From assembly GCA_965215635.1 (NCBI GenBank), contig CBDCEA010000004.1, forward strand, positions 308,897 to 372,896: DNA of 64,000 nt, read 5' to 3'. Positions within the stretch are counted from its first letter, which is position 1. Every line of letters starts with the position of its first letter. The DNA comes from Alphaproteobacteria bacterium. Lineage in GTDB: Bacteria > Pseudomonadota > Alphaproteobacteria > SP197. The notes beneath the pieces are model-generated. The model was not told where the DNA came from and made no database searches. It saw only the letters and a program-made list of their open reading frames with translations. A program made the translations under genes and the position numbers. Of this stretch, positions 3,226-41,422 are shown piece after piece.

Positions 3226-3646
3226 GAATGGATCCTCGCATGGTGGTGAAGTCATGATGCGCAGACGTCGTCCGACATTCAAGATTTCTGCGTCATGCCT
3301 GCAACACGGACACGAGAGCCTTTCCCGGTTTCTTGGCTGTTGGTGTTGCAGGGCTGTCCTTGCAGAGCAGCCAATTCTTGAAGATCAGAATTTCCTGATA
3401 TGGTCACATTATTATTAGAACCAGCCTGTTATATCGGTATATTCGGCTATTTCATGAAGCATTTATGGGGGCTCCGTTAACACCATTTCCGGGTTCGCCC
3501 CAGACCGCAGACAGGGCAGCCGGTGTGGACAGCCAGGAGGTGTCCGGAGACACCGGCACCGACTATTGGTGATGTCTCGAGACTGTCACCAAGACAGTTC
3601 TTTGCTGAGCTTCACCTGCATGCCGCGCAGCACTAAGGGCGATGGC

Positions 3647-5983: not shown

Positions 5984-6340
5984 GAGGCCCGGCAGCCTGA
6001 AACCGCATCATAGGCCCAGATGTCGTGGCTTTCGCGCAGTTCCCCGGCGTCGCGCGGATGGCAGTTCCGTTGCAGCAGTTCCTCGCGTGAAAGGTCCATG
6101 GTGTCCCTGACCTGGTGACAAGGGTGCAACGAGACCGGAATCTCATGCTCCGCCCGACGATCCCACTTGCGAGGATCGCTGTGGTTCCTGGACTCTGGCA
6201 CATCCAGGTCCTTCAATGCCACCAGCGCGAAACAGCAAGGGCAGGGAAGCGCTCCCTGCGCGGATGAATTACCGACGTTGATCAATCGAGCACCGCACCT
6301 GTACTATTTCCTGCCATGATGCATCGAGGAGAGATTCAAG

Positions 6341-7484: not shown

Positions 7485-8007
7485 ATTCCTGTGATCTGCT
7501 GATCGACAACTACGGCCCGGCAATCGGTTGCGTCGCGACCGGTTGCCGGGCCCTGCATGTCTGCTGTCTCCTGCCCATGAATGGAAACCCGGGATGGCAT
7601 TCGGACTCGACATTCTTCCCGGCGATGCCGTGGATCGATCGGGAGCAGAGATCGTCACCGGCTTCGTTCCTTTCCGGATGCCTCTAACGGTTCATCAGCG
7701 AGGCCCCAGTCCGGCGTCGACCGGGCAGAGCGCCTTGTCTTCGGCAAGCCCGGGCTTAAGAACGGTTCGCATCCACGGCCTCCTCGCCGTGGCGGACCAC
7801 CGGCTGTTTCCCCGCTGATCCAGCCATCTCTTTGGCGCAAGTGAGCTGATCGAGTCCCCAGGCGGCGAAACGGCGCAGTGCTTCCATGTCGATGACGGTC
7901 CTTGGCCCGCCTCGCCGCGCAAGTGGCAGGCCTGCTCCAGATGAACGTCATGGTGGCAGGAACAGATATCGCGGCCGACAGCGGCTCCACACTCGTGGTT
8001 AGCGGCA

Positions 8008-8062
8008 GCCATGAATGGGAAGGGGACTGGCTTCCTCTCGATGATGAGGTGGTTCAGTTGGT
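8008..8062. repeat. about 50-bp short repeat element, copy A (copy B at 10178..10232)
   Basis: gccatgaatgggaaggggactggcttcctctcgatgatgaggtggttcagttggt versus gccatgggcgggaaggggactccctcttgatgacgaggtggttcagtcggt, about 85 % identical. Both copies flank urease-related DNA. Confidence 0.6.
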
Positions 8063-8090
8063 GAGGCCGGGATTGCCATCACTCGGGGCG

Positions 8091-8575
8091 GGTGCTCGGC
8101 TGCGTAATCGGGGCCATGCTGGTCGACATGGAACCAGGGCCCGATCACGACTTTCTGGGGATCGGGCAGATTGGCCCACCACAGCAGTGTGTCCCTCGGG
8201 AACATGTCGAACCAGCCGGCGAGGTGATAGATGGGGATACCGCTTTCCGCGATCTCCCGAAGGCAGCCATTGGGACTGCGCGTGGCGTGAAGGCATTCGC
8301 CGCTGATCGAATCGCGGCTGCCGCGGTAGGGCACGTTCAGCAGCATCCGGTACCAGTCGAGGTTCGCGCGATGTTCGCGCCTGGCCTCCTTGAGTAACTC
8401 CGTGGCGACATCGTCATCGACCGGGGCCGCAGGACCCTGGTACGAACCGCGCCATATCATCAGCGAGGCTGCGTTGTCTCCCATCGCGGACCAGACAATG
8501 AGCCCTCCCTTGATGACCTGTTCCGGCTTGATCCTGAAGAATCCGAGCCGCCAGAGAACGATATCCGCGAACTCC
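8091..8575 (-). pseudogene. chimeric gene fragment: a 370-bp copy of an internal piece of the CocE/NonD gene (equivalent to 4469-4843) fused to a 120-bp copy of an internal piece of ureC (equivalent to 10745-10865)
   Basis: Direct nucleotide comparison shows about 93-95 % identity to both source segments. The junction lies at a shared tcatc (catatcATC|agcgag). ORF 7999..8643 (-) translates as urease-alpha-like ...[33 protein letters not shown] followed by CocE-like [45 protein letters not shown]... Confidence 0.85.
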
Positions 8576-8715
8576 GCGATTGGCTCACCGAGCGCAGATG
8601 CGATCCGGTGAGCCCGCCCAATTCCACACGCGACAACCGTCACCCATCAGGAAGCAACGGCAAGGGACGGGCACCGCAGGGCCCGCCCTTCCGAATGTTC
8701 AGAACGCGAGGCGGC

Positions 8716-9846
8716 TCAGAAACCGGCCTTCACCTCGTCGAACTTGATGATCATCTTTTCCCGGATATCCGAGGGAATTTCGTCGTAAAAGTTGCCTTGG
8801 GCCATCAACGCGACAGGATCGAGGATCCCGAGGGATTCCAGGATCTCGGAATCGATCAGATCGTAGGTGTTCTTGTTCGAATGCCCATAGCCATAGGCCT
8901 CGATCAGATACTTGCCTGCGCGCGGTTCCATGGCGGCATTGAGGTAGTCATAGACCAGGCCGTCGGCCGCTTCGCCGCTGCTGCCAAGCGAGAAGCCGCA
9001 GATCCAGGTCATGATGCCCTCCTTCGGGTTCATGTAGGCCACGGGGATGCCCTGGTTCTTGAGATCTATGATAGAACTGTTCCATGACCAGGCCGCGATC
9101 AGCTCACCAGCCGCCATCGCCTGCTCGAACTCGGTAGGCGAAGCCCAGTAGAAGCGCACGTTGGCATGGAGCCTCCGCACTACCTCGGTGGCGCGCTTGA
9201 TCTCCTCATCAGTCATCGCGAAGATGTCCTCGGCGCCAATCAGCAGCGCACCCACCGCGTAACTCGAATCGACCGAATCGAACATGGAAATCTTGCCCTG
9301 CAGTTCGGGCCTGAGGAGGACATCGTAGGACATTTCGTCCTCGGTGAGCGGAAGCAGGTCCGTGCGGTAGAGGATCGAACTGTTCCCCCAGTCCCACGGC
9401 ATGAAGTAGAATTCACCATCGATCTTCACGCCGCGGATCTCCAGCGTTGTGGGGAAGATATCGCCCCAGGCGTCGATGCGGGTGTGGTCGACCGGGCGCA
9501 GGGCGCCGGCGTCCTTCCAGCGCGCGACCGAGCCGCTGCAGGGATGGGTGATGTCTGTCGGAAATCCCGCCCGCATCTTCTGGAGTGCTTCTTCCTCCTC
9601 GGCGAAGAGTGCGAAGTTGGGTTCTGTGCCGTACTTTTCGACATAGGCCGGATAAAATTCGGGAAGCTCGTATCCAGCCCATTCGAAGACCGCCAGCGAG
9701 GCGGGATCGCCGCTCTGTGCGAACGCGCGGCCCGCGCCGACTGTCACGAGACCGGCGGCCGCAAGGGTGCGGTGAAAGTCACGGCGCGAAATCTCGCCGC
9801 CGACGAGGTTGTCGACCAAACGGGTCGCCTTGGATTTCCGGTACAT
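8716..9846 (-). CDS. PotD/PotF-like periplasmic substrate-binding protein (TAT signal), paralog 2
   Basis: MYRKSKATRLVDNLVGGEISRRDFHRTLAAAGLVTVGAGRAFA (twin-arginine) followed by W(A/G)GYE.PEF and DWGNSSILYRTDL blocks shared with the other three paralogs. ATG at 9846 has GAGAGGA 6 nt upstream. Confidence 0.75.
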   Translation of the reverse strand: MYRKSKATRLVDNLVGGEISRRDFHRTLAAAGLVTVGAGRAFAQSGDPASLAVFEWAGYELPEFYPAYVEKYGTEPNFALFAEEEEALQKMRAGFPTDITHPCSGSVARWKDAGALRPVDHTRIDAWGDIFPTTLEIRGVKIDGEFYFMPWDWGNSSILYRTDLLPLTEDEMSYDVLLRPELQGKISMFDSVDSSYAVGALLIGAEDIFAMTDEEIKRATEVVRRLHANVRFYWASPTEFEQAMAAGELIAAWSWNSSIIDLKNQGIPVAYMNPKEGIMTWICGFSLGSSGEAADGLVYDYLNAAMEPRAGKYLIEAYGYGHSNKNTYDLIDSEILESLGILDPVALMAQGNFYDEIPSDIREKMIIKFDEVKAGF

Positions 9847-10177
9847 GTTTGCTCCTCTCAAAGCAATGTATCACTGATCGACGGTGCCTAAAACCAGTCC
9901 TTCTGTCAACCGACGGCCAGATGTTGATGGTTGGATTCGGTGCTGTTGGGGCGATTCGATCATGCGCCTTCTGGGGTTCAGTGTAACTCCGCTTATGCGT
10001 ACGCCATTGTAGGGCGTTTCTCTTTGGCGAGCGCGAATCCCGCCCGGCAACTGGGGCCCCGAAACGGCAATCGCAGGAGTCGACCCTCCGGGAAAAAGGG
10101 GAAGACCGATGGTCGACCAGGAAGCGAGTCTCAAAGGTACCTGTCCACTTCCGCCCGGGTATCGAGAGATTCCCGGT

Positions 10178-10232
10178 AGCCATGGGCGGGAAGGGGACTC
10201 CCTCTTGATGACGAGGTGGTTCAGTCGGTTCT
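10178..10232. repeat. about 50-bp short repeat element, copy B (see 8008..8062)
   Basis: See copy A. Lies in the approximately 560-bp non-coding, decayed-looking stretch downstream of ureC. Confidence 0.6.
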
Positions 10233-10436
10233 GCAATCATTCGCGGCGATTGCCTTTACACCCAGGCACGCTGTCTCGTTCCCTTATTGCCCTGGATGAA
10301 TGCGCCCCTTGCCGTCCGATGGCGTTGCGGGATTTTCGGTGAAGCCCCGGGCTACGAGATCTACGACGGTTCCCAAGAAGAGGTCAGAATCGGTTACCCC
10401 GGATCCTGTTCGGGCCATGGCCGAGCAGCTGTGGTG

Positions 10437-12149
10437 TCAGCGGAGCATGTAGAGCTGTGTCAGGGGCAACTCCCTAGCCGGTTCACAGGTCGCCAGTTCG
10501 CCGTCCACAAAGACTTCGAAGGTATTGGGATTAACCTCCACATCGGGGCAGGTATCGTTGTGCAACATATGGGACTTGTTGAGTTTTCTCACGCCGCGCG
10601 CAGCCAGGACGGATTTCGACAGTCCAAGCTTGCCTGCAACATCAGCATCGACGGCGCGCTGATTGACGAAGCATGCAGAAAGAGCCTTGCCGGCTTCACC
10701 GAACGCACCCCATTGCGGGCGCATCAGGACCGGCTCGCACGTCATCAGCGAGGCTGCGCTGTCTCCCATCGCAGACCAGACAATGAACCCTCCCTTGATG
10801 ACCAGTTCCGGCTTGATCCCGAAAAATCCGGGCCGCCAGAGAACGATATCCGCGAGCTTTCCGTCTTCGAGTGATCCGACATAGGCATCGATCCCGAACG
10901 TTCTTGCCGCATTGATCGTGTATTTCGCAAGGTAGCGACGGATCCGGAAGTTGTCTCCTCGCGCGGTGGTCTCCTCCCCGAGGCGGCCGCGTTGATTCTT
11001 CATCTTCGATGCGAGTTGCCAGGTTCGGCAGATCACCTCACCTATGCGCCCCATGCCCTGACTGTCGGATCCCAGCATCGATATGGCGCCGATATCGTGC
11101 AGAACATCTTCGGCAGCCATGGTCTGGGGTCGAATCCGGCTTTCGGCAAAGGCGACATCCTCCGGAACAGCCGGATTGAGATGATGGCAAACCATCGTCA
11201 TGTCGAGATGCTCATCGAACGTATTGATGGTGAAAGGATTCGTGGGGCTGGTGGACGATGGCAGGCAGTTCATTTCACCGGTCACACGGATGATGTCCGG
11301 GGCATGACCGCCGCCCGCTCCTTCCGCGTGATACATGTGTATGGTGCGTCCGTTGATGGCTTCAAGAGTATCGTTGAGGAAACCGCTTTCGTTGAGCGTG
11401 TCGGTGTGAAGCTGCACCTGGAAGTCCAGTTCGTCGGCGACCTTCAGGCAACAGTCGATCACGGCAGGCATCGCCCCCCAGTCCTCGTGTATCTTCAACC
11501 CGAGGCAGCCACCGGCGAGCTGCTCGGGTAGCGAGTGCGGTCTGGAGGAGTTACCACGACCAAGAAAGCCGAAATTGATGGGCCAGTGTTCGGCCGCCTG
11601 CAGCATCTTTCCGACATTCCATGCTCCGCCACAGTCGATGCCCACAGTGATGGGCCCCAACGATCCGCCGATCATGGTTGTGACGCCGGCCGAAAGGGCG
11701 TGTTCACACAACTGTGCGGAGTCGAAGTGCACATGCGCATCGATGCCGCCAGGCGTGGCGATCAGACCCTCGGCATCGCGGACCGTGGTCGAAACTCCGC
11801 ATACGAGTCTCGTGTCGACTCCGTCCATGACCGCCGGGTTGCCGGCTTTCCCGATGCCGGCAACTCGGCCATCCTTGATGCCGATGTCTCCCTTCACCAC
11901 CCCCAGAACCGGGTCCATGACCACTACGTTGCAGACCAGCATGTCCAGTGCACCCGAGGAACTGTCATAGCCCGCGGTCAGACCCATTCCGTCGCGCAGC
12001 GTCTTGCCTCCTCCGTGAAGACACTCGTCTCCCGGAACGGCGTGATCGTGCTCTATCTCCGCGAGGAGTGACGTGTCGCCGAGACGCACCGCATCTCCGG
12101 AGGTTGGTCCGTACATGGTGGCGTAGTCTTTACGGGACATTGTGGCCAT
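10437..12149 (-). CDS. ureC: urease alpha subunit (UreC), 570 aa
   Basis: All canonical active-site elements are present: HVHFDSAQL (His-x-His), GLKIHEDWG (carbamylated Lys), [23 protein letters not shown] and [15 protein letters not shown] Shine-Dalgarno 7 nt before the ATG. Confidence 0.95.
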
Positions 12150-12152
12150 GAT

Positions 12153-12848
12153 TCATGCTCCCCTGAAACCGCGCGACCGGGCACGCCGCAGAGCTTCCGC
12201 CTTTCTCGCTTCGTTGCGTGTGGAACCGTCCGTCAGGTTGTTGAGTCCGACGATTTCTCCCGTCCCGCCGAACGTCACCAGGTTCACCTGTTTGCTTTCG
12301 CCGGGCTCAAAGCGGACCGCGGTTCCGGCCGGAACATCGAGATGCAGACCGAATGCCTTTTCCCTGTCGAAGTTGAGGGCACGATTGGTCTCGAAGAAAT
12401 GGTAGTGACTGCCGACCTGAATCGGACGATCTCCGGTATTGGTGACAACAAGGGTCACTTTCTCACGACCGGCATTGAGTTCGATGTCGCCGTCGGCCGT
12501 CATGACCTCGCCCGGAACAGTTCCGGCTGCCGGCTCCTCTTCACCCGGTCGAATGGGATCATGAACCGTCACGAGTTTGGTGCCGTCCGGGAACATTGCT
12601 TCGACCTGGACAATAGGAACGAGCTCGGCGACACCCGGCATCACATCGCCCCTGTTGAGAATCGTCGACCCGAAACTCATCAGTTCGGCGACCGTACAAC
12701 CGTCGCGGGCTCTCTCGAGAATCGCGTCGCAGATTAGCGCAACAGCCTCCGGATGATTGAGTTTCACGCCCCTTGCACGTCTTCGCCGGGCTATTTCAGC
12801 CGCAGTGAAAATTGTCAGGCGTTCCATTTCGGTAGGAGTCAGCAACAT
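12153..12848 (-). CDS. ureAB: fused urease gamma-beta subunit (UreAB), 231 aa
   Basis: N-terminal 100 aa match UreA ([39 protein letters not shown]). The C-terminal half matches UreB ([42 protein letters not shown]). The stop lies 3 nt before the ureC start. Confidence 0.9.
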
Positions 12849-12907
12849 TTGGAGTGCTCCTCAAGTTATTGCAGCGCGTCCTGCCACCACCTTCTTGTGG
12901 ACCATGC

Positions 12908-13945
12908 TCAAGCCGGCCGGGGACGCCTGATGGTCTGATCCACCACTTCGCCACGTGCCTTTGCCGCTGCCGCCATGAGCCGAAGCACGACACACACGGC
13001 GAGACGGGAGGTCGTTCCGCTGACGTCGAAAATCGGGCAGAGTTCGGAAATTTCGATGACGCTGGGGCCGCCACGCCGTCCCAGCGCGTCGGCGATCCGC
13101 ATCATCTCCCTTGATTCAAGACCGCCCGGTTCGGTGGCGGTGACGCCCGGAGCAACGGATGCATCCATGACATTGAGATTGAAGCTCAGATACTGCGCAT
13201 CGGTTCCGTTCCAAACACTCGTGGCCGCCTCGTCGACGACCGTATCGACACCGCGTTCGAGAGCTTCGAACATCGGGTGAAACCGCACATTCCTTTCTCT
13301 CGCGAGATCGATCCAGTCCTTGGGATTGAGGGAATTCCGGGCACCGACATGCCCGATATTGCCGGGGCTGACATTCGGCAATTCGCTGATCCTGGCCAGC
13401 GCGCAGGTACTGACCTCGCTTTCTCCCGCCCAACTGTCTGCAAGGTCGAGGTGCGCTCCGAAATGCAGATAGCCCATCTTCCGATGCTCGCCGATGTGAT
13501 CGGACAGTGCCCTGGTTGCGGGAATGGAAATCGATCTGTCACCGCCACAGATGATCGGTATGACGCCCGCGGCGAGAATTTCGCGTGTCGCATCGTAGAT
13601 ACGCTTGCGCGACAGCGCGGGATTCACTTTCGGCATCTGGATGTCGCCGCAATCGGCGCTGCTGCCGTTGAGATCGACCTGATACTCGAACCAGTAGGGA
13701 AAGTATTCCTGCGATGCCAGACGAAACTCCCTCGGTCCTTCATCGGATCCGGGTTTACCGACATTCCCTTCGTCGAACGGTGCGCCGACAAAGGCGTAAC
13801 GAACGCCCGCGGTACGCAATTGCTCCCGGTCGAGCGCGACGTGATCCGAGCGCATGAACGTGATCTGTCCGGGTGCCCGGTAGTTGACAGCGTCATCACC
13901 ACCCTGGGGCGAAAACAGATGTGCGTAGACCTTGGCTGGATTCAT
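12908..13945 (-). CDS. arginase/agmatinase-fold protein lacking 4 of the 6 canonical Mn-ligand residues (probable non-catalytic paralog), 345 aa
   Basis: Aligned by eye to the downstream paralog and to arginase-family motifs: GGDRS (expected GGDHS), GAHLD (expected DAHxD) and SFNLN (expected SxDxD). His101, Asp124, Asp232 and Asp234 equivalents are all replaced. Confidence 0.8.
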   Translation of the reverse strand: MNPAKVYAHLFSPQGGDDAVNYRAPGQITFMRSDHVALDREQLRTAGVRYAFVGAPFDEGNVGKPGSDEGPREFRLASQEYFPYWFEYQVDLNGSSADCGDIQMPKVNPALSRKRIYDATREILAAGVIPIICGGDRSISIPATRALSDHIGEHRKMGYLHFGAHLDLADSWAGESEVSTCALARISELPNVSPGNIGHVGARNSLNPKDWIDLARERNVRFHPMFEALERGVDTVVDEAATSVWNGTDAQYLSFNLNVMDASVAPGVTATEPGGLESREMMRIADALGRRGGPSVIEISELCPIFDVSGTTSRLAVCVVLRLMAAAAKARGEVVDQTIRRPRPA

Positions 13946-14000
13946 TTCTGGGCATTCCCTGAATTGTCGGAAGACTGAACGCGCATGCGAGGTGGAAGCG

Positions 14001-15068
14001 TCACGGCGCGGCGCCCTGTTCGCGCAGAGTCTTCGCGCGGCTTCCGAGGTAGTGGTAGATCATGCAGCATGCGAGCTTGATGCTCATCTGGCTGACATCG
14101 AAGATGGGACACAGCTCGGAGAGTTCGAGAATGTCCGCACCGTACGTGCCCGCAATGCGTGCGAGCTGGATGGCTTCCCTGGAATTGATGCCGAAACATT
14201 CCGGCGCCGTCGTTCCGGGCATGCAGCTGGCATCGAGAGAATCGGTGTCCCAGGAACAATAGACCGCGTCGGTCCCGTTCCAGGCGATGTCGAAGATTTC
14301 CTTCGTGCAGGCTTCCACGCCGCGCTCGACAACCTCCATCATGGGGATCAGACGGACATCGGTGTCGACGAAGAAATCGTACCAGTCCTTCGGATTGAGT
14401 CCGTTGCGAGAACCCATGTGCGCCATGTTGGCGCCGTCACAGTTTTCGAGATCAAATGCGCGGGACGGTCCGGAGCAGTTGGTGTTGCGGATGCCTCCCC
14501 AGTCCGGTGCCGAGTCGAGATGACAATCGATGTGAAGGTAGCCGATCCTGCCGTTCCTGTGGAAATCCGACAGCGCGCGTGCACCCGGAATGGGCGCGGA
14601 GTGGTCACCACCACAAAAGATGACTTTTGCCCCTCCTTCCAGGCACTCCGTGATGTACTGGTAAATGAACTCGTGAGAACGATCGTTGTTGCCGGGAACA
14701 ATGGGCACATCGCCGCAATCGACAGGCCTGAAGGTTTCGACCAGATCGACATCGTACTCGAACATGTAGGGAAAGTACTGGGAGGACGCCTCCCTGAGGC
14801 CGGCTGGACCGGAAGACGTGCCGGAACGGACCATCTGGCCCTGATCCCAGGGAACACCGAGGAAGCAGATTTTCGCTCCCATGGCGCGGATCGCCTTGCG
14901 GTCCGGCGGGCAGTAGGGCGCTCCCATGAAGGTGGCAATTCCCGGAGATTTCAGCGTGCCGTTGTGCAGGCGTGGTGACCGGATGTGATCGTCCGGGCGC
15001 GTGTGTTCCTGCGGGCCCTGATGCTGGTGCGGCACGAAACTCCAGGCCGTCGTTGCGCCTTGTGTCAT
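14001..15068 (-). CDS. arginase/agmatinase-family ureohydrolase with a complete metal-ligand set, 355 aa
   Basis: GGDHSAP, HIDCHLDS (D-x-H-x-D) and SWDTDSLDASCMPG (S-x-D-x-D) are all present. Shares the C-terminal ELSELCPIFDVS block with the upstream paralog. Confidence 0.8.
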   Translation of the reverse strand: MTQGATTAWSFVPHQHQGPQEHTRPDDHIRSPRLHNGTLKSPGIATFMGAPYCPPDRKAIRAMGAKICFLGVPWDQGQMVRSGTSSGPAGLREASSQYFPYMFEYDVDLVETFRPVDCGDVPIVPGNNDRSHEFIYQYITECLEGGAKVIFCGGDHSAPIPGARALSDFHRNGRIGYLHIDCHLDSAPDWGGIRNTNCSGPSRAFDLENCDGANMAHMGSRNGLNPKDWYDFFVDTDVRLIPMMEVVERGVEACTKEIFDIAWNGTDAVYCSWDTDSLDASCMPGTTAPECFGINSREAIQLARIAGTYGADILELSELCPIFDVSQMSIKLACCMIYHYLGSRAKTLREQGAAP

Positions 15069-15259
15069 TGTATTCCCCAGGCTGTTTGCCGATCGGCGCC
15101 GGCACGTTCCGATGCCGGGTAGTCGTCATCGGCGTCAAACTCCGGCTCGACTGTCGAGACCTGCATTTCACGACCGGTCACGACTTCCCGAGTCGCCATG
15201 CAGCAGACGCTGTACATGTCCTTAGCCTTCGTTCTTCGAGTCCGAATTCATGACGTCAA

Positions 15260-16078
15260 TCACATGTGTTCCCTGTTGGGACTTTCCTCCCGCATCATGT
15301 GCATGATGTGCCGCTCGAGATCAGAATAGCCCGGCAAACCTATCACGACTTCCTTGTCCGGGATTCGGTTCCCGGACTTGAACTCTGTGGTGAGGTTTTC
15401 CCGGATCCGTCCCGGATGCCGGGACATGAAGAGAATCCGGTCGGCGAGGAAAATCGCTTCCTCGATGTCATGCGTGACCAGGAGAACCGTGGTGCGTGAC
15501 GACTCCATGATGTTCAAGAGCAATTCCTGCATCGTCCAGCGCGTTTCCGCATCAAGGGCGCCGAACGGCTCGTCCATGAGGAGCATGGAGGGACTGTTCG
15601 CCAATGTTCTGGCGATGGCGACACGCTGCTTCATGCCTCCGGAAAGTTGTGTCGGATAGGCATCGCGGAACTTCTCCAACTGGACCAGGGAAATGAATTG
15701 GTCGGCCCGGTCCTTGCGTTTCTTCCTCGGCACGCCATTAAGTCGCATGCCGTATTCGACGTTCTCCTGGACCGTCAGCCAATCGAACGACGTATAGGAC
15801 TGAAAGACCATGCCACGATCCCCGCCGGGACCATCGATCCGCCGTCCATCGATCGTGAGTATACCTTCCGTCGGTTCCTCGAGGCCTGCAGCCATGCGCA
15901 GCACCGTCGACTTGCCACACCCGGAAGGGCCGAGCAGGACGCAAAGCTCGTTGTCGACAACATCGAAAGACACATCGACGACCGCATCGATGGTACCGTG
16001 CGCGGTGGAAGGAAATGACTTGGAGACCTGCGATACCGACAACTTTGGTCCAGCGATGGTCTTCGTGTACCCGTTCAT
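15260..16078 (-). CDS. ABC transporter ATP-binding protein, NitT/TauT (nitrate/sulfonate/taurine-type) family
   Basis: Walker A GPSGCGKST, signature LSGGMKQRVAIARTL, Walker B LLMDEPFGALD. Size and domain order match SsuB/TauB-like proteins. Start at the internal ATG (MNGYTK...) because the longer ORF would overlap the upstream substrate-binding-protein gene by 45 nt and uses TTG. Confidence 0.75.
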   Translation of the reverse strand: MNGYTKTIAGPKLSVSQVSKSFPSTAHGTIDAVVDVSFDVVDNELCVLLGPSGCGKSTVLRMAAGLEEPTEGILTIDGRRIDGPGGDRGMVFQSYTSFDWLTVQENVEYGMRLNGVPRKKRKDRADQFISLVQLEKFRDAYPTQLSGGMKQRVAIARTLANSPSMLLMDEPFGALDAETRWTMQELLLNIMESSRTTVLLVTHDIEEAIFLADRILFMSRHPGRIRENLTTEFKSGNRIPDKEVVIGLPGYSDLERHIMHMMREESPNREHM

Positions 16079-16170
16079 TCCGGCGACCGTCAGGCTTCCA
16101 TCGATGCGGTTGGCATCGTGACCGGCCGGAGAAACCCGTCGGCCGGTCACATGGCGACGCTGTTCCGGTG

Positions 16171-17241
16171 TCAGCCCCCGTAACCGGACTCGTACAGGTC
16201 GGTCAGCAGGGAACAATCGGTACCTTCAGACGGATCAACTTCTTCCGACATCTGGCCGAACTTGATCCACCATTCGTTCGTCATGCGCCAATGATCGGCT
16301 ATCTGTCCGTTGGTCTGCCCGAAAGGCGGATCACCGGGCGCCGAACCGCAGAATCTGGCGGTTTCCATGAATGAATAGGGATACAGTCCGCCATCTTTAC
16401 CGGTCCCGTCCTTGCCGATCACGAGTTCCACGTCTTCCACAGACATCTTCATCCTGCGGGCGATGATTTCATTGCCCTCAGTCGGATTTTCACTCCACCA
16501 GGCGATCGCGTCGTAGAGCGCCGTCATGGTCTTGAGGGCGACGTCCCTGCGCTGCTCGATGAAGCTGGCGTTCATGAAAAGTGCATCCGCAATGAGCGCA
16601 TTCTGCAACCAGAAGGGTTCCCGCGAGTGAGCGGCGAGTCTTGTATTCGGCCTGGCTTCCAGAACCTGTGTTCCGAAGGGATCCCAGAATTCGGCCGCTG
16701 CAACATCCCCGCCGATCATGGCGGATGCCGCGTCATCCATGATCAGGTTGACATATTCGACCTGATCGTACGCAACACCGTTCTGTTCCAGCCAGATGGC
16801 CATGTAGAGCTGAGCGAGTCCACCCTCGAGCACCGCGACTTTCTTGCCGACGAGATCCGCGGCACTCTCGATGCCCGGGCTTACAACGATCTTGTCCGTT
16901 CCGTAGGATATGTTGCCGTAGGCGACAAGCTTGACGGGTATGCCTTCCGCAGCTGCAATGGGAGCGAACTCGATCGTGCTCGAGACGACGTCGAGCTGTC
17001 CGGCCGCCGCAAGGGCAAATGTCTGGAAGGGATCCTCGATGGCCTCGTAGCTGATCTCGAGGTCCGGGGCCAGACCCACTTCGTCCGCAATGAACCAGAA
17101 GCCGTAGCCGGGCCACGTCAGGCCGGCGATACGGACTTCCTCGGCCGCCTGAACACGGTTCGATGACACGGCGCACAGCGCCACGCTCACCAGCACTGCA
17201 ACTGAAACAACTTTCAAACTTCCAACAAGCCTGCCGGTCAT
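16171..17241 (-). CDS. ABC transporter substrate-binding protein, NMT1/THI5-like (NitT/TauT family), Sec signal peptide
   Basis: MTGRLVGSLKVVSVAVLVSVALCAVSSNRVQAAEE signal peptide, then an NMT1-type fold. GAGGGA Shine-Dalgarno 8 nt upstream of the ATG at 17241. Confidence 0.75.
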   Translation of the reverse strand: MTGRLVGSLKVVSVAVLVSVALCAVSSNRVQAAEEVRIAGLTWPGYGFWFIADEVGLAPDLEISYEAIEDPFQTFALAAAGQLDVVSSTIEFAPIAAAEGIPVKLVAYGNISYGTDKIVVSPGIESAADLVGKKVAVLEGGLAQLYMAIWLEQNGVAYDQVEYVNLIMDDAASAMIGGDVAAAEFWDPFGTQVLEARPNTRLAAHSREPFWLQNALIADALFMNASFIEQRRDVALKTMTALYDAIAWWSENPTEGNEIIARRMKMSVEDVELVIGKDGTGKDGGLYPYSFMETARFCGSAPGDPPFGQTNGQIADHWRMTNEWWIKFGQMSEEVDPSEGTDCSLLTDLYESGYGG

Positions 17242-17266
17242 GGCGGTCTCCCTCAAATGGTCACAA

Positions 17267-18067
17267 TCAACGCTCCCGTTCATCAAGGTATGGGAACAAC
17301 CAGCGATGTGCAACACGGAACAAGTAATCGAACAGGAGCCCGAGCAGGCCGATGACAATGATGCTCGCCATGATCTTGTCGACGTGGAGGAATCGCTTGG
17401 CGCGCATCATGACGGCACCGATACCTGTGGTTGCCGCCACGATTTCGGCGATCACCAGATAGGTCCAACTGACGGCGAGCATTTGCCGCATGGCAACCAC
17501 AATGTCGGGCATGGCGGCAGGCACGATGACTGTTCTGAGGATCTGCCAGCGGTTTCCTCCCAGTGTCATCGAGGTCTCGATGAGCTCGGTGCGCACGGAC
17601 TTGACGTGATCCATGATCAGCGTGATCAGAAACCAAAGCACTCCGATGAAGAGAAGGGCGATTTTCTGCTCGTCGCCGGTGCCGAACCACATCAGCAGAA
17701 GAGGGATGAAGGAAGGTGCCGGCAGATAACGCCAGGCCGAAACCAGCGGGTTCAAGAAGGCTTCAATCCGGCGGAACGATCCCATCAGGATACCCAGCAC
17801 GACGGCAACCAGGCATGCAGCCCCGAAACTGACCACGATCCGGTAGATGCTGATGCCTATGTCGAGCAGATAGTCGCCGCTCGTCAGAAGGGAATGGAGC
17901 GTCAACAGCACCACGTAGGGCGACGGCATGAACATGGCATCGACCCACGCCAGGGATACCGCAATTTCCCACAACGCAAAGAAAATCAGCCATATGGCTG
18001 TGCCGAGCATGATGATCGTGCTGAGCGGGATGGTTGACTTGAACTCCAGCCAGCGTCGTCTGTACAT
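17267..18067 (-). CDS. ABC transporter permease, NitT/TauT family
   Basis: Six predicted TM segments and the EAA-like loop region (…TSMTLGGNRWQILRTVIVPAAMPDIV…), typical of BPD_transp_1 permeases. Start ambiguous (ATG at 18067, 18142 or 18172; none has a good Shine-Dalgarno). Confidence 0.7.
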   Translation of the reverse strand: MYRRRWLEFKSTIPLSTIIMLGTAIWLIFFALWEIAVSLAWVDAMFMPSPYVVLLTLHSLLTSGDYLLDIGISIYRIVVSFGAACLVAVVLGILMGSFRRIEAFLNPLVSAWRYLPAPSFIPLLLMWFGTGDEQKIALLFIGVLWFLITLIMDHVKSVRTELIETSMTLGGNRWQILRTVIVPAAMPDIVVAMRQMLAVSWTYLVIAEIVAATTGIGAVMMRAKRFLHVDKIMASIIVIGLLGLLFDYLFRVAHRWLFPYLDERER

Positions 18068-18234
18068 GGGACGGGTTCCGGATAGGTCTGCTTGCAGATG
18101 GACCGAAGCCGCAGGCTGAACCAGGACGTGACTGCCAACCATGCGTTCTTCGGCAATACTGGTTCCGCGCATGTGATGTGGTCAAGCTTGAAGATGTTCG
18201 GGTTCCGGCGGTGTGTCGGAGCAGGGGGAATGGC

Positions 18235-19353
18235 ATGAGGATCCTGATCTGCGGTGGTGGCGTGATCGGCGCGTCGATCGCCTTTTTCCTGAGCCGGGCA
18301 GGGGCTGAAGTGATTGTCATCGAGCGGACCGGGATCGCCTGTGCGGCATCGGGCAAGTCCGGGGGATTTCTTGCTCTCGACTGGTGCGACGGCTCACCCC
18401 AGGGGGCGCTGGCCAGGCGCAGCTTCGCCCTACATGCGGAACTCACCCAAACCCTCAACGAGAACTGGGGATACCGCAGACTCGATACCCTGAACGTGGT
18501 CGCAAGCGCCCGCCGTAGTGTCGAGGCCTGGCGAAGGCAGGCATCGCCCGCGTGGCTCGCCCCGGAAGCGGCCGTTCATGCCAGGCTTGGAACGCGGGAT
18601 ACGACGGCACAGATCGACCCGGCTGCCTTCACGAAGGCCATGTTGAACGCCGCGCTCGCGTTGGGGGCCGAACTGCGCATTGGCACCGTGACGGGCGTCG
18701 CGCTGAATCGGAACGGATCGGCTGCAATGGGGGCGGTTGTCGACGGCAGGGTGGTGGAGGCCGATGCGCTTGTCATCGCCATGGGTCCCTGGTCCGAGCT
18801 GGCGCGCCAATGGTTGCCGTTACCGCCTGTTCACGGGCTGAAGAGCCACAGCCTCGTCCTTGGCTTCGAGCCGCCGGCTGGACCCGAAGCTCTCTTTGTC
18901 GAACTCGAGACGGCAGACGGCGACGCGGAGTCGCCGGAGGTGGTTCCGCGGCCCGACGGAACGACCTGGATCTGCGGCGTTTCGAGCACAACACCACTCC
19001 CTGAGGATCCGGCCGATGTCGTTGCAGACGACGGGGCCGTCGAGAAGCTTCGCGCCCTGGCCGGTCAGTTTGCGCCCGGGCTCGCCGAGGCCCCGGTTCT
19101 GGCATCCCAGGCGTGCTACCGGCCGTTCATCCGGGACGGCCTGCCGGTGATCGGTCTGGTTCCCGACGTCGAGAGAGCCTGGATTGCGACGGGGCACAGC
19201 GTGTGGGGCATGCTGAATGCGCCCGCCACAGGCGAGGCCATGGCCGACATGATCCTCCACGGTGAAACGCGAGCGGTCGATCTCGCCCCGTTCGATCCGG
19301 GGCGCATGGCTGCCGGTCAGCCGAAGACGGCTGTCGTGACTTCGGTTTCGTAG
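18235..19353 (+). CDS. FAD-dependent oxidoreductase (DAO/glycine-oxidase-like)
   Basis: N-terminal Rossmann motif MRILICGGGVIGASIAFFLSRAG...VIVIER. GGGGGA Shine-Dalgarno 6 nt upstream. Confidence 0.75.
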   Translation: MRILICGGGVIGASIAFFLSRAGAEVIVIERTGIACAASGKSGGFLALDWCDGSPQGALARRSFALHAELTQTLNENWGYRRLDTLNVVASARRSVEAWRRQASPAWLAPEAAVHARLGTRDTTAQIDPAAFTKAMLNAALALGAELRIGTVTGVALNRNGSAAMGAVVDGRVVEADALVIAMGPWSELARQWLPLPPVHGLKSHSLVLGFEPPAGPEALFVELETADGDAESPEVVPRPDGTTWICGVSSTTPLPEDPADVVADDGAVEKLRALAGQFAPGLAEAPVLASQACYRPFIRDGLPVIGLVPDVERAWIATGHSVWGMLNAPATGEAMADMILHGETRAVDLAPFDPGRMAAGQPKTAVVTSVS

Positions 19354-20114: not shown

Positions 20115-22886
20115 TCAGTGAACCTCTTCGGCGCCCGCAGCGGGTTCCACTCGCGCGGCGCAGAACTTGAACTCCGGTATCTTGCCGAAGGGGTCGAGTG
20201 CCGGATTGGTGAGTATGTTTGCAGCCGCCGTCTCATAGCAGAACGGTACGAACACCACGCCGGACTGGAGTCCTGCATCGGTGCGGACCTTCGCCTCGAT
20301 CGCCCCGCGTCTTGTCGAGATGCGAATGGCATCGCCGGGAGCGATGGCAAGGCGCCTCATGTCACCGGGTGCCATCATTGCCACGGCCTCGGGTTCGAGA
20401 CTGTCGAGCACGGTGGCACGGCGGGTCATCGCACCGGTGTGCCAGTGCTCGAGAAGCCGCCCTGTCGTCAGGATCATCGGGAAGGTCTCGTCGGGTGTCT
20501 CATCGGGCGGAATGATGTCCGCAGGCACCATGAGACCGCGTCCCGTCGGTGTCGGGAACGCGTCGGAAAAGACGATCTCCTGGCCAGGATCGTCTTCCGA
20601 ACTGCAGGGATAGATCACGGCATCCTCGCGGCTGACACGCTCCCACGAGATGCCTGCAATGGACGGCATGACCTGGCGCATCTCCTCGAAGATCTCGCCG
20701 ACGCTGCCGTAGGACCAGTCGCGTCCCAGACCCTGGGCGATCGACTGGATGATCTCCCAGTCCTGGCGCGCCTCGCCGGGAAGCGGCACCGCCTTGCGGC
20801 CACGCTGGACCTGGCGGTTGGTGTTGGTGGCTGTGCCGTCCTTTTCTGGCCACGCGCTCGCCGGCAGCACCACATCGGCGTGCATCGCGGTCTCGGTGAG
20901 GAAGAGATCCTGGACCACGAGATGATCGAGCTTCGCAAGGGCCTCGCGGGCATGATGTGCATCGGGATCCGACATCGCCGGATTTTCGCCCATGATATAC
21001 ATGCCCTTCATGGTACCGGCATGGACCGCGTTCATGATCTCGACCACGGTAAGGCCTGGCTTGTCGGAGAGTTCGGTTCCCCAGAACTCCCGGAAGCGTT
21101 GCCTGTTCGTCTCGTTGCTCACCGGTACGTAGTCCGGAAAACTCATCGGGATGAGCCCGGCGTCGGAGGCACCCTGGACATTGTTCTGTCCGCGCAGGGG
21201 ATGGAGGCCGGTTCCCTCGCGTCCCGTGTGGCCGGTCATCAGGGCAAGCGAAATCAGGCAGCGGGCATTGTCCGTGCCGTGGATGTGCTGGCTGATGCCC
21301 ATACCCCAGAAGATCATGGCGCGTTCGGCGCCTGCATAGGTCCGCGCCACCTCACGCAGGGTCTCTGCATCGACGCCGGTGACGGACTCCATCGCTTCCG
21401 GCGAGAAGGCCTTGAGATGATGCTTGAGTGCCTCGAAGCCTTCAGTCATCGCCTGGACGTACTGGGCGTCATGGAGACCTTCCTCGACGATGACGTGCAT
21501 GATGGCGTTCAGCATCGCGACATCCGCACCCGGCTTGAACTGCACCATGTGCGTGGCATGCCTGTTCAGGGCCTGACCGCGCGGATCCATCACGATGAGT
21601 CGGGTGCCGCGTTTCACTGCGTTCTTGAAGAACGTCGTGGCGACCGGATGATTTTCCGATGGATTGGCACCGATCACAATGATGCAGTCTGCCTTGAGCG
21701 CTTCGGTGAAGGGGGCTGTGACGGCACCCGATCCTATGCCCTCGAGCAGTGCGGCCACGGAGCTGGCGTGGCAGAGCCTTGTGCAGTGATCGACATTGTT
21801 GCTCCCGAATCCGGTGCGCACCAGCTTCTGGAAGAGGTAGGCCTCCTCGTTGGAACCCTTCGCCGAACCGAAGCCGGCGAGGGCATGACCGCCGTGGCCG
21901 TCGCGTATCGCGGCAAGGCCCGAGACCGCGACCGCGAGAGCCTCGTCCCAATCTGCCGCCCGGAAGTGGGTGAACGGATTGGAAGGATCGACCCATTCGT
22001 CGGCGCCCTTGGGGGCGTCGTCCCTGCGGATGAGCGGCCGGGTGAGTCGCTGGGGATCGTTGATGTAGTCGAAGCCGAAACGCCCCTTGACACAGAGCCT
22101 GCCGTGATTGGCCGGTCCTTCCTTGCCCTTCACCGCAACGATGCGATCCTCGTCGACCTGGTAGGTGATCTGGCATCCCACACCGCAATAGGGGCAGACA
22201 CTGTCCACCTCCTTCGCCGGTCCTGGCCGGCCGATTCCGTTGTCGTCCACAAGGGATTTCTCCATAAGCGCACCGGTCGGGCAGGACTGCACGCATTCAC
22301 CGCAGGCCACGCACGTCGATTCACCCATCGGATCGTCGAAATCGAACACGATCCTGGACTCGCGGCCACGCCACGCCATGCCGATGACATCATTGACCTG
22401 GATCTCCCGGCAGGCCCTCACGCAACGGTTGCAGTGGATGCAGGCATCGAGATTGATCGCCATGGCGGGATGGGAAAGATCGCTCGCGGGAGCGCTGCCG
22501 TGCCGCGGATAGCGCGAACTCTCGATACCCATCATCCGGGCCCAGTTCCAGAGTTCCGAGGACGAGGTGTGGGCTTTGGCCTCGGGCGGCTGGTCGGCGA
22601 CGAGCAACTCGAGCACGGTGGATCGTGATGCCTCGGCGCGCCTGCTCGCGCTGTGGACGGCCATGCCGGAGTGCGGCTGACGAATGCACGATGCCGCCAA
22701 CGTGCGTTCACCCTCGACCTCGACCATGCAAAGACGGCAGTTGCCGTCCGGCCTGTAGTCCTGCATTTCGGTATGGCACAGATGGGGAATCACCCGCCCC
22801 TGGCGTCTGGCCACCTGCCAGATCGTCTCGCCGGGCCGGGCGGTCACGGTCTGGCCATCCAGCGTGAAGGTGATGGGCTCACTCAC
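20115..22886 (-). CDS. fdsA: NAD-dependent formate dehydrogenase alpha subunit (FdsA/FdhF-type molybdopterin oxidoreductase), 923 aa, Cys-type
   Basis: N-terminal 2Fe-2S and 4Fe-4S Cys clusters (CHTEMQDYRPDGNCRLC, CIHCNRCVRAC, CVACGECVQSCP), the Mo-bisPGD domain with the VDHCTRLCHASSV active-site region (Cys, no TGA), and the C-terminal cap. Confidence 0.9.
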   Translation of the reverse strand: MSEPITFTLDGQTVTARPGETIWQVARRQGRVIPHLCHTEMQDYRPDGNCRLCMVEVEGERTLAASCIRQPHSGMAVHSASRRAEASRSTVLELLVADQPPEAKAHTSSSELWNWARMMGIESSRYPRHGSAPASDLSHPAMAINLDACIHCNRCVRACREIQVNDVIGMAWRGRESRIVFDFDDPMGESTCVACGECVQSCPTGALMEKSLVDDNGIGRPGPAKEVDSVCPYCGVGCQITYQVDEDRIVAVKGKEGPANHGRLCVKGRFGFDYINDPQRLTRPLIRRDDAPKGADEWVDPSNPFTHFRAADWDEALAVAVSGLAAIRDGHGGHALAGFGSAKGSNEEAYLFQKLVRTGFGSNNVDHCTRLCHASSVAALLEGIGSGAVTAPFTEALKADCIIVIGANPSENHPVATTFFKNAVKRGTRLIVMDPRGQALNRHATHMVQFKPGADVAMLNAIMHVIVEEGLHDAQYVQAMTEGFEALKHHLKAFSPEAMESVTGVDAETLREVARTYAGAERAMIFWGMGISQHIHGTDNARCLISLALMTGHTGREGTGLHPLRGQNNVQGASDAGLIPMSFPDYVPVSNETNRQRFREFWGTELSDKPGLTVVEIMNAVHAGTMKGMYIMGENPAMSDPDAHHAREALAKLDHLVVQDLFLTETAMHADVVLPASAWPEKDGTATNTNRQVQRGRKAVPLPGEARQDWEIIQSIAQGLGRDWSYGSVGEIFEEMRQVMPSIAGISWERVSREDAVIYPCSSEDDPGQEIVFSDAFPTPTGRGLMVPADIIPPDETPDETFPMILTTGRLLEHWHTGAMTRRATVLDSLEPEAVAMMAPGDMRRLAIAPGDAIRISTRRGAIEAKVRTDAGLQSGVVFVPFCYETAAANILTNPALDPFGKIPEFKFCAARVEPAAGAEEVH

Positions 22887-24586: not shown

Positions 24587-24689
24587 GAAACTCCTCTTCC
24601 CCGGCAAGAGGGGCGAATGGACGGGGCGCGGGAACATGCCCCATGACGCGCCGGGTGTCACCCCCCGATGGGGATTTGCCCGGCGCCGT

Positions 24690-41368: not shown

Positions 41369-41388
41369 TCGTATTTCCCATTGGCATT

Positions 41389-41422
41389 GCAGCGGATGGG
41401 TGTCTCCGACACCCATCCGCTG
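41389..41422 (+). terminator. perfect 16-bp-stem hairpin immediately downstream of the paralog-3 substrate-binding-protein gene (terminator or REP-like element)
   Basis: gcagcggatgggtgtc tc cgacacccatccgctgc. No U-run follows. Confidence 0.5.

Follow-up and report, generated by a model that had tools for sequence, protein, structure and literature searches.

A minus-strand operon of this DNA that has lost its nickel-maturation genes and its regulator probably encodes an uptake-to-ammonia pathway. Its substrate would be a small N-alkylated guanidine, with 1,1-dimethylguanidine as the most probable one. The cationic substrate would be imported by a NitT/TauT ABC system and converted to urea and dimethylamine by a DmgH-type complex, which by homology would be Ni-dependent and of alpha2beta4 composition. 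Catalysis would reside in the alpha subunit, with the beta subunit serving as an obligatory cap and scaffold. The predicted co-transcribed urease (UreAB-UreC) would then convert urea to 2 NH3 and CO2. This general scheme, guanidino uptake followed by urea release by an arginase-fold enzyme and by urease, had been proposed in a first-pass annotation and is supported here.

Operon layout and importer

Seven co-directional genes on the minus strand of the window, the whole 64 kb stretch analysed, encode the NitT/TauT ABC importer, two arginase-fold proteins, a fused UreAB and UreC. All of the genes previously listed were found (7/7), in the order claimed, and the UreC gene lies just beyond the interval then given. 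The features are:

18068..18234, no strand: divergent intergenic region between the permease gene and an FAD oxidoreductase gene, presumed promoter region
17267..18067, minus: NitT/TauT-family ABC permease, 266 aa (Pfam BPD_transp_1)
16171..17241, minus: NMT1-type periplasmic substrate-binding protein, 356 aa (Pfam NMT1 and NMT1_2)
15260..16078, minus: ABC transporter ATPase, 272 aa (Pfam ABC_tran)
15065..15217, minus: hypA 3'-end relic, 50-codon ORF (alignment with the HypA C-terminus of relatives)
14001..15068, minus: predicted catalytic alpha subunit of a DmgH/MefH-type heteromeric ureohydrolase, 355 aa (PDB phmmer)
12908..13945, minus: predicted non-catalytic beta subunit with a degenerate metal site, 345 aa (PDB phmmer)
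12153..12848, minus: fused urease gamma/beta subunit UreAB, 231 aa (Pfam Urease_gamma and Urease_beta)
10437..12149, minus: urease alpha subunit UreC, 570 aa (NCBIfam TIGR01792)

From the permease gene to ureC, the intergenic gaps are 25, 92, 191, 55, 59 and 3 bp, and judging only from this spacing the genes are likely co-transcribed. The gaps contain zero terminator-like sites, and the interval's ORFs on the plus strand are antisense shadows cast by these G+C-rich genes, in agreement with the original description of an operon uninterrupted by terminators or opposite-strand genes. In the intergenic region 18068..18234, no Rfam riboswitch was detected and no sigma-70-like site was seen; over the whole window, matches to the sigma-54 consensus were not above chance. 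Most related loci have an AsnC-type regulator in front of the importer; the window has none. Downstream of ureC lie fragmentary ORFs, including a 40-codon ureC fragment.

The importer resembles that of the Hyphomicrobium sp. SMAG_U6089 locus (L051), whose arginase-fold pair has been assayed as dimethylguanidine hydrolase, DmgH (PMC11399263). That pair, too, is flanked by the corresponding importer genes (54-65% identity) and by fused ureAB-ureC. The permease ORF is open up to 18172, with the start called at 18067 from the public gene call and relatives, whose alignments start near this position. Its best NCBIfam models, TauC and SsuC, are both under their cut-offs, and it is 61% identical to the L051 permease. 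Similarly, the ATPase (ORF 15260-16216, called start 16078) is nearest to the taurine, SaoA and nitrate ATPase models and 65% identical to its L051 counterpart. The binding protein (ORF 16171-17358, called start 17241) scores 92.8 bits with SsuA_fam, under the 163.5 cut-off, has only weak PDB matches, to TauA and SsuA, and shares 54% identity with the L051 binding protein. Among 31 binding-protein orthologues, 23 aromatic or acidic residues and 0 basic residues are conserved at a level of at least 95%, a pattern consistent with a cationic ligand. In GimA, the same residue classes, aromatic and acidic, build the guanidinium site (PMC12704784). Taurocyamine, an earlier candidate substrate, is unlikely because the orthologues conserve no basic residue.

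The ureohydrolase and its substrate

By sequence, the arginase-fold pair belongs, as alpha and beta subunits, with the heteromeric Ni-dependent MefH/DmgH hydrolases, and is not an intact enzyme accompanied by a second arginase-fold gene, as it had been read. In phmmer searches of the PDB, the alpha protein matches metformin hydrolase subunit A (8x3g, 8snf, 8ryi) with an E value of 1.5e-170 and the beta protein matches subunit B (8ryi_C) with 5e-157. The alpha subunit is 73.8% identical to DmgH alpha of L051 and 65.5% to PmMefH alpha, while the beta subunit is 69.6% identical to L051 beta and 63.9% to MefH beta. All six metal ligands are intact in alpha (H156, D181, H183, D185, D274 and D276), so the description of a full ligand set holds; the label Mn-type does not, because the metal cannot be read from these residues and the same His/Asp bind Ni in MefH/DmgH. 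In beta, the six positions read R-G-H-D-N-N; this subunit retains the N-terminal cap as well as the counterparts of MetCb Y22 and F82. In the MefH/DmgH family, the degenerate-site beta subunit is required for activity (PMC11399263). The alpha fingerprint Q78, C182, W190, N197, T286, T287, A288 and E318 (QCWNTTAE) is identical to that of L051.

Two other identities for the pair are hardly credible. The top PDB matches are metformin hydrolase subunits, and a Cys occupies the position of MefH Cys184; however, this Cys is invariant across the family and thus not diagnostic of a metformin hydrolase. The specificity triplet is T-T-A here but N-S-A in MefH, the Hyphomicrobium enzyme with the same fingerprint lacks metformin activity, and metformin activity was lower by a factor of roughly 20,000 in homologues sharing about 71% identity with MetCa. 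Moreover, metformin hydrolase releases guanylurea and not urea, so the linked urease would be left without a substrate. Equally improbable is a chance neighbourhood, with an ordinary agmatinase (SpeB) or a guanidinase of the GdmH type placed beside a transporter and urease that have nothing to do with it. The pair does carry the Pfam Arginase domain, and homologues are labelled 'agmatinase' in public sources, but the NCBIfam agmatinase model scores only 110 bits, under the 174 cut-off. The 14001..15068 protein, whose placement among the agmatinase and GdmH clades had been suggested as a check, falls with MefH/DmgH and is much more distant from GdmH (E 1e-40 compared with 1e-170 for MefH alpha); neither SpeB nor GdmH has a tandem pair with a degenerate beta. 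Linkage to importer and urease is seen in dozens of loci. Specifically, among the 37 fully flanked loci with the same fingerprint, a NitT/TauT permease is found beside the pair in 25 and ureC in 20, which indicates that the association is not due to chance.

By homology, the best-supported substrate is 1,1-dimethylguanidine. Hyphomicrobium DmgH converts it to dimethylamine and urea and does not hydrolyse metformin (PMC11399263). Of the guanidine compounds offered to the assayed enzymes of Aminobacter and Pseudomonas, metformin and dimethylguanidine were the only ones hydrolysed (PMC11399263). The alternative, unlikely but deserving some weight, is that the machinery is unchanged while the true substrate is guanidine, methylguanidine or another natural N-substituted guanidine, with dimethylguanidine a surrogate. 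DmgH is a poor catalyst for dimethylguanidine, with a KM of 2.6 mM in HEPES and 57 mM in Tris and a kcat of about 0.9 per second, and it is attached to an importer type that, by analogy with GimABC, may be of high affinity. According to the DmgH authors, no natural source of dimethylguanidine is known (PMC11399263), and the physiological substrate of the whole DmgH family may be something else. The family has also diversified: a paralogous clade, found in the same genomes as the window type, carries the fingerprint TCWNTSCE and has a PotD-type importer linked to it. In a bootstrapped alpha tree, in which deep branching among groups is weak, the two DmgH lineages with assayed members form a group that leaves out the window clade, so phylogenetic bracketing does not secure the substrate. 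Against a different substrate, the eight-residue fingerprint and the operon context are common to the window and the assayed Hyphomicrobium locus. Furthermore, two candidates named at first pass are disfavoured: Aminobacter DmgH and MefH were inactive on methylguanidine and on the remaining guanidine compounds of the assay (PMC11399263), and guanidine was not hydrolysed by MetCaCb.

Loss of the nickel-maturation genes

Both urease proteins exceed their NCBIfam cut-offs, UreAB with 363.7 bits for NF009671 (cut-off 243) and UreC with 800.5 bits for TIGR01792 (cut-off 680). The catalytic motifs of UreC are intact, among them GSDSQGMGR, and we take these, after the K. aerogenes enzyme, to hold the Ni ligands, the carbamylated Lys and the catalytic His. 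ORF scans and six-frame tblastn found no HypA/HypB or UreD/E/F/G genes in the 64 kb, which extends the reported absence of HypA/HypB-like chaperones; only a hypA relic remains. This ORF, in the 191-bp gap between the ATPase and alpha genes, matches the HypA C-terminus of relatives (CGMPTPEVVTGREMQ...; pairwise blastp, 3e-08), and it was the single spot in the whole window matched by five different HypA queries (tblastn, E 1e-4 to 3e-3).

The relic occupies the place of hypA in a canonical layout common to the Hyphomicrobium locus and many other MAG loci: AsnC, importer, HypB, HypA, alpha, beta, UreE, UreF, UreAB, UreC, UreG and UreD. Within the window's own clade (100% bootstrap), the full layout is present in L006 and L015. 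The window operon is a stripped version derived from this widespread cluster; hypB, ureE, ureF, ureG, ureD and the regulator were deleted, and the hypA relic is the deletion scar. Nickel loading is presumably supplied in trans. In L003 and L004, the nearest relatives also lacking hypBA in cis, hypB-hypA are found elsewhere on the chromosome, adjoining a paralogous alpha/beta pair (L062, L072). Counting against the proposed pathway, knockout of the HypAB homologues abolished growth of Aminobacter on metformin, and the 64 kb encode no such protein.

Alternatively, the cluster might be decaying, with no active nickel enzymes made after the loss of hypBA, ureEF, ureGD and the regulator. Six maturation genes are missing, with the hypA relic as the only remnant, fragmentary ORFs including the piece of ureC follow the operon, and the L003 binding-protein gene contains an in-frame stop. 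This is very unlikely, however. All seven window ORFs (7/7) are intact, as are the catalytic and ligand residues of alpha and UreC, and the two closest genomes that are complete or nearly so encode hypBA at another site (L062, L072). In comparisons with L003, L004 and L005, lineages that share the ureEFGD loss, dN/dS of the seven retained genes is 0.04-0.16 at dS 0.6-1.3 (alpha 0.04-0.05, beta 0.06-0.08, UreAB 0.08-0.11 and UreC 0.05-0.06). This strong purifying selection on all seven genes argues that the pathway is probably active.

Comparison with known systems

The gene combination was first described as not being a textbook operon. The combination is indeed present, but DmgH-urease clustering was published in 2024 (PMC11399263), and the association of GdmH with a guanidine importer of the NitT/TauT type followed in 2025 (PMC12704784). 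The one unusual feature of the operon is the loss of all nickel-loading helper genes.

The closest system is DmgH of Hyphomicrobium sp. SMAG_U6089 and Aminobacter niigataensis DSM7050 (Sinn et al., 2024; PMC11399263), which shares the tandem alpha/beta genes, the six His/Asp ligands in alpha and the degenerate site in beta. The Hyphomicrobium locus likewise has a NitT/TauT importer upstream and fused ureAB-ureC downstream, but it possesses hypB, full hypA, ureE, ureF, ureG, ureD and AsnC, which the window lacks. Aminobacter DmgH has S-T-S and Ser184, whereas the predicted window enzyme has T-T-A and Cys. The metformin hydrolases MefH, MetCaCb and MfmAB (PDB 8snf, 8ryi, 8x3g) share the fold and the two-subunit family with the window pair, and the beta N-terminal cap and the pocket residues Q80, W192, N199 and E320 of MefH are conserved. 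In contrast, MefH has the triplet N-S-A, produces guanylurea, has hypAB and hupE as neighbours and often resides on plasmids. The contigs that carry the window locus range from 74 kb to over 1 Mb, and in a megablast search of a plasmid collection, no near-identical DNA match to this locus was found.

Synechocystis GdmH with GimABC and GhaAB follows the same logic, from importer to Ni arginase-family hydrolase to urease (PMC12704784). The parallel drawn at first pass, a GdmH gene beside a NitT/TauT importer, is correct: the gene adjoins GimABC, whose binding protein has a KD of 97 nM for guanidine (PMC12704784). GdmH, however, is a distant relative encoded by one gene instead of an alpha/beta pair, is controlled by a guanidine-I riboswitch, of which none was found here, and by NtcA, and its operon contains the GhaAB chaperones but no urease. 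As in the canonical urease operon ureABC-ureDEFG, the structural subunits keep the catalytic motifs and exceed the family cut-offs. Unlike that operon, which has accessory genes and stands alone, the window has a fused gamma/beta subunit, lacks the accessory genes both in the cluster and in the 64 kb, and carries its urease genes inside a substrate-specific catabolic operon.

Gene order and identity of the arginase-fold pair

A search with ORF calls and Pfam/NCBIfam profiles places seven co-directional genes on the minus strand between positions 10437 and 18172:

start 18067, minus strand, BPD_transp_1 permease
start 17241, minus strand, NMT1-type binding protein
start 16078, minus strand, ABC ATPase
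14001-15068, minus strand, Arginase-family protein, alpha (355 aa)
12908-13945, minus strand, Arginase-family protein, beta (345 aa)
beginning 59 bp past beta, minus strand, fused urease gamma/beta protein (UreAB)
beginning 3 bp past UreAB, minus strand, UreC

The three transporter-gene starts come from public calls made on metagenome contigs of identical sequence (ENA ERZ25068873 and ERZ25072760; 74 kb, 563 kb and >1 Mb) and give genes shorter than the ORFs. With these starts, the intergenic gaps are 25, 92, 191, 55, 59, and 3 bp, the fourth of which separates alpha from beta, and no terminator-like hairpin was found in any of them. Gene order, gaps and the lack of a terminator confirm the proposal of the first-pass annotation that a NitT/TauT importer, an arginase-fold pair and urease genes form a single co-directional run. 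UreC is part of this run, as proposed, although it falls just beyond the interval then assigned (12153-18172). The urease subunits score above the NCBIfam cut-offs. The UreC motifs at H139/H141, K219, H248, H274, H322, and D362, which we take from the K. aerogenes enzyme to be the Ni ligands, carbamylated Lys and catalytic His, are all intact.

On sequence grounds, alpha and beta are members of the heteromeric, Ni-dependent ureohydrolase family that includes metformin hydrolase (MefH, or MetCaCb) and dimethylguanidine hydrolase (DmgH). In the PDB, the best match of alpha is MefH subunit A (8x3g, 8snf, 8ryi; E ~1e-170) and that of beta is subunit B (E 5e-157), while cross-matches to the opposite subunit reach only ~1e-60 to 1e-68. 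The alpha and beta clades also split cleanly in the tree. MefH is a Ni-dependent heterohexamer, alpha2beta4 in the crystal structure of Sinn et al. (PMC11399263), with a metal site in alpha only and activity that requires beta (PMC11399263; PMC11271267). In the window, alpha possesses all six His/Asp metal ligands (H156, D181, H183, D185, D274, D276). Beta reads R-G-H-D-N-N at these positions, with four ligands replaced where betas of the family have three to five of the six replaced; MefH beta reads R-G-Q-D-N-N. The pocket and cap residues described for MefH (MetCa N199, Q80, W192, and E320; MetCb Y22 and F82; PMC11271267) are likewise present. Specifically, alpha N197 occupies the position of MetCa N199, where Asn stands for the non-coordinating catalytic His of arginases, and Q78, W190, and E318 match the other three. 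Beta keeps Y and F at the two MetCb positions, and its N-terminal cap, MNPAKVYAHLFSPQGGDDAVNYRAPG, is conserved.

DmgH, the presumed precursor of MefH, converts 1,1-dimethylguanidine to dimethylamine and urea. The enzyme of Aminobacter niigataensis DSM7050 was shown to do so, as was a ~70% identical pair from Hyphomicrobium sp. SMAG_U6089, and that DmgH clusters with genes for urease was already noted by the authors (PMC11399263). The alpha active-site fingerprint of the window, Q-C-W-N-T-T-A-E at MetCa Q80, C184, W192, N199, 288-290, and E320, is the same as that of the Hyphomicrobium DmgH (locus L051). Identities to L051 are 73.8% for alpha and 69.6% for beta, compared with 65.5 and 63.9% to PmMefH. 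The window system is an orthologue of one characterized in 2024. The first-pass annotation missed this family identity, which came from the structure search, and with it the nickel dependence of the family and the role of the second arginase-fold gene as a beta subunit with a degenerate metal site, required for activity in MefH. Its reading of the ligand set as Mn-type is unfounded. Among the placements it had offered for the protein at 14001-15068, neither ordinary agmatinase nor the guanidine hydrolase GdmH holds, and PDB scores favor MefH subunit A.

Related loci and the nickel-maturation genes

Scanning a single genome for each GTDB species yielded 79 related loci, nearly all in MAGs of Alpha- and Gammaproteobacteria, which were annotated by tblastn with the window proteins and accessory proteins from L051 as queries. 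Many come from MAGs labelled Alphaproteobacteria, Arenicellales, or Candidatus Poriferihabitaceae, the last two labels accounting for several, and the family is broad in environmental and apparently host-associated MAGs. The canonical layout is AsnC, permease, binding protein, ATPase, HypB, HypA, alpha, beta, UreE, UreF, UreAB, UreC, UreG, UreD. Fully flanked loci sharing the window fingerprint (QCWNTTAE) number 37; the permease is present in 25 of them, ureC in 20, and HypA in 29. A paralogous clade (clade 2; L062, L072, L060-L081) has the fingerprint T-C-W-N-T-S-C-E, versus N-S-A at 288-290 in MefH. All 13 of its fully flanked loci carry HypA, and none carries a NitT/TauT permease or ureC. 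In L062, the one examined in detail, a PotD-type ABC importer and a TetR regulator come after HypB-HypA-alpha-beta. Some genomes contain both this clade and the window type (L003/L062, L004/L072, L015/L079), and the clade probably represents a heteromeric ureohydrolase that acts on a different substrate.

The window groups with L003-L006, L008, L010, L014, and L015 at 100% bootstrap. A first NJ tree also joined it to the assayed Hyphomicrobium enzyme, but the deep nodes among the window clade, the Hyphomicrobium group, MefH and clade 2 were not supported by bootstrapping, and assigning the substrate by phylogenetic bracketing was abandoned. The nearer relatives of the Hyphomicrobium group may be MefH and clade 2. 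Among individual loci, L035, L039, L042, and L046 have Asn rather than Asp as the last alpha metal ligand (H-D-H-D-D-N) and keep HypBA and full urease clusters. An Arenicellales MAG (L030) has two adjacent alpha/beta pairs, one per fingerprint, with a urease cluster and NitT/TauT importer on the opposite strand. The aligned part of the NitT/TauT binding-protein gene contains an in-frame stop in L003 (OY763008.1), the closest complete relative, reflecting either a pseudogene or a sequencing error.

In ORF scans and six-frame searches of the 64 kb, neither an AsnC regulator nor any of the six nickel-maturation genes turned up, bearing out the earlier remark that HypA/HypB chaperones are absent beside the pair. 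The ureD, ureE, ureF, and ureG genes are absent from the whole window, and a search for relics of these and of hypB returned only noise (tblastn, E up to 1, queries from eight relatives). The sole exception is hypA. Within the 191 bp upstream of alpha lies an ORF of 50 codons, CCMATREVVTGREMQVSTVE, which can be aligned to the C-terminal end of relatives' HypA (pairwise blastp 3e-08) and is the only window site matched by five independent HypA queries. This ORF is a remnant of the 3' end of hypA, a deletion scar at the syntenic position.

The fully stripped layout is common to the window, L003 and L004 only, and synteny between L003 and the window extends to both flanks. In L005, ureEFGD is likewise missing, but the hypBA genes are relocated upstream of the importer. 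Because the loss of ureEFGD is common to these four loci, which form one group at 100% bootstrap, it is older than their divergence at dS 0.6-1.3. In the window, L003 and L004, hypBA was lost from the upstream side of the pair. Across this divergence all seven genes have dN/dS of 0.04-0.16, which, together with the intact UreC catalytic motifs, shows that the retained genes are under selection for function. This loss of every nickel-maturation gene while purifying selection continued is one of three points of modest interest, the others being the conserved NitT/TauT importer and the breadth of the family among MAGs. A clade-2 pair with hypB-hypA is also encoded on the chromosomes bearing L003 and L004 (L062, L072), a plausible source of chaperones for the stripped clusters. 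The chaperone-less variant is a natural experiment on whether maturation factors from other loci can serve two nickel enzymes.

Proposed pathway, probable substrate and genomic surroundings

In the proposed pathway, the ABC system would import a small cationic guanidine, the alpha/beta enzyme would split it into urea and dimethylamine, and urease would hydrolyze the urea. The earlier idea of guanidino import followed by urea release and urease was sound in this respect. The importer consists of an NMT1/SsuA-type binding protein, one permease and one ATPase, whose nearest NCBIfam models are taurine, sulfonate and nitrate (NitT/TauT) systems; all scores fall under the equivalog cut-offs, so the models assign no substrate. 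Solved structures were dropped as a guide to the ligand, the binding protein matching only TauA and SsuA, and these weakly. The cationic ligand is suggested by the 31 binding-protein orthologues, whose conserved positions include 23 aromatic or acidic residues but not a single basic one. This pattern argues against taurocyamine, a sulfonate previously listed as a candidate substrate. The guanidinium site of GimA is formed by aromatic and acidic residues, W59, W62, F205, D135, and D233 (PMC12704784). The main text of the DmgH paper names only HupE, SMR exporters and a CodB-like permease as transporters (PMC11399263), so the recurrent NitT/TauT importer seems not to be discussed there.

The assignment of dimethylguanidine as the most probable substrate rests on the fingerprint and orthologous operon context shared with the assayed enzyme rather than on phylogenetic bracketing. 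The kinetics of DmgH are weak (KM 2.6 mM in HEPES, kcat 0.9 per second), and no natural origin of dimethylguanidine is known (PMC11399263), which leaves room for a different physiological substrate. A wider reading, which we consider improbable as a whole, is that the true substrate is a natural N-substituted guanidine other than dimethylguanidine and that both nickel enzymes of the window's lineage work without cis chaperones, either borrowing HypAB/UreDFG from paralogous clusters or needing none. The cluster bears on the natural role of the DmgH family, from which metformin hydrolase is presumed to have evolved recently. In the window and ~80 relatives the hydrolase usually lies within a complete importer-hydrolase-urease pathway, an argument for a nitrogen source that is real and recurs in the environment. 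Candidate proteins for tracing it are the conserved NitT/TauT binding protein and the paralogous clade linked to a PotD-type importer.

The surroundings of the cluster contain the following features:

646-2853, plus strand, N,N-dimethylformamidase-like protein (DMFA2_C, E 1e-86)
2860-3282, minus strand, cupin
7999-8643, ORF fusing a UreC fragment with a piece of a Peptidase_S15/CocE-NonD hydrolase
8458-8577, minus strand, within that ORF, 40 codons 80% identical to residues 430-469 of the operon's UreC
8716-9861, minus strand, orphan PotD/PotF-type binding protein
18178-19353, plus strand, DAO-family FAD oxidoreductase, divergent from the permease gene (ThiO model 110 bits, cut-off 250)
20115-24661, minus strand, molybdopterin/NuoF-type, formate-dehydrogenase-like pair
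40214-41368, plus strand, orphan PotD/PotF-type binding protein
41381-41863, plus strand, 160-aa fragment of an AMP-binding enzyme
51354-51433, plus strand, SAM_alpha riboswitch (71 bits), upstream of the next gene
51418-52665, Cys/Met-metabolism PLP enzyme
52781-53737, homocysteine S-methyltransferase
57188-58309, plus strand, orphan PotD/PotF-type binding protein
59008-60891, minus strand, group II intron (RNA domains D1-D4, 115 bits, 60674-60891; reverse-transcriptase ORF 59008-60327)
61168-62877, plus strand, rve_3 integrase-domain ORF

The dimethylformamidase-like and cupin genes on one side of the cluster and the formate-dehydrogenase-like genes on the other are all syntenic in L003. Dimethylformamidase likewise yields dimethylamine, so dimethylamine-yielding amides may be a theme of the neighborhood, in which no dimethylamine catabolic genes were seen. 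The FAD oxidoreductase is probably unrelated to the pathway because it is missing at the equivalent position in L003 and L004. Most of ~5984-10436 is not matched by anything downstream of ureC in L003 and may be a zone of insertion or rearrangement that contains broken genes. The PotF-like protein at 8716-9861 was considered as a relic of a clade-2 importer and rejected at only 24% identity over 157 residues. The three orphan binding-protein genes, without neighboring permease or ATPase, the AMP-binding fragment and ORFs without Pfam matches suggest many gene fragments or assembly frameshift errors. The intron and adjoining integrase ORF form a mobile-element patch, and the SAM_alpha riboswitch supports an alphaproteobacterial host.

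Plasmid origin and several modes of regulation were also considered and rejected. Megablast of 10437-18172 against PLSDB gave no match, and the locus lies on contigs of up to >1 Mb, with the others as sized earlier. At the Rfam gathering score, the only hits across the window were the SAM_alpha riboswitch and the group II intron, and the cluster itself had none. The sigma-54 consensus matched 20 times, where chance alone predicts 27, and no match lies upstream of the permease gene; visual inspection picked out a weaker GG-N10-GC element (~18148-18163), which has three mismatches and is not claimed. The fold z-score of the 191-bp gap (-1.23) was not significant for an attenuator.

Comparison with characterized systems

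MefH has N-S-A at positions 288-290 with Cys at 184, and the Aminobacter DmgH has S-T-S with Ser. In contrast, the window has T-T-A with Cys, which is neither published reference state. This combination, shared with the assayed Hyphomicrobium DmgH, speaks for DmgH-type specificity without proving it. As with DmgH, the pair clusters with urease, ureAB following beta by 59 bp. While HypA/HypB genes adjoin the pair in the MefH/DmgH family, the window lacks hypB and retains only the hypA relic; adjacent HypA/HypB genes are a contextual trait of the family and not a property of the enzyme. L051 has exactly the canonical layout, and the window possesses the same pathway genes without those for nickel maturation and AsnC.

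The similarity to GdmH is more distant. Alpha matches the GdmH structures (7esr, 7oi1) only at E 1e-40, and guanidinobutyrase, guanidinopropionase and agmatinases score lower still. The GdmH system has a single-gene hydrolase close to Sll1077, GhaAB chaperones and a guanidine-I riboswitch, whereas the window has a two-gene pair, no chaperones and no riboswitch at the Rfam gathering score. The analogy to GdmH and its ABC transporter drawn in the first-pass annotation is nevertheless sound, as gdmH of Synechocystis is adjoined by GimABC, a NitT/TauT guanidine importer (PMC12704784). By this analogy, the NitT/TauT importer of the window clusters parallels GimABC.
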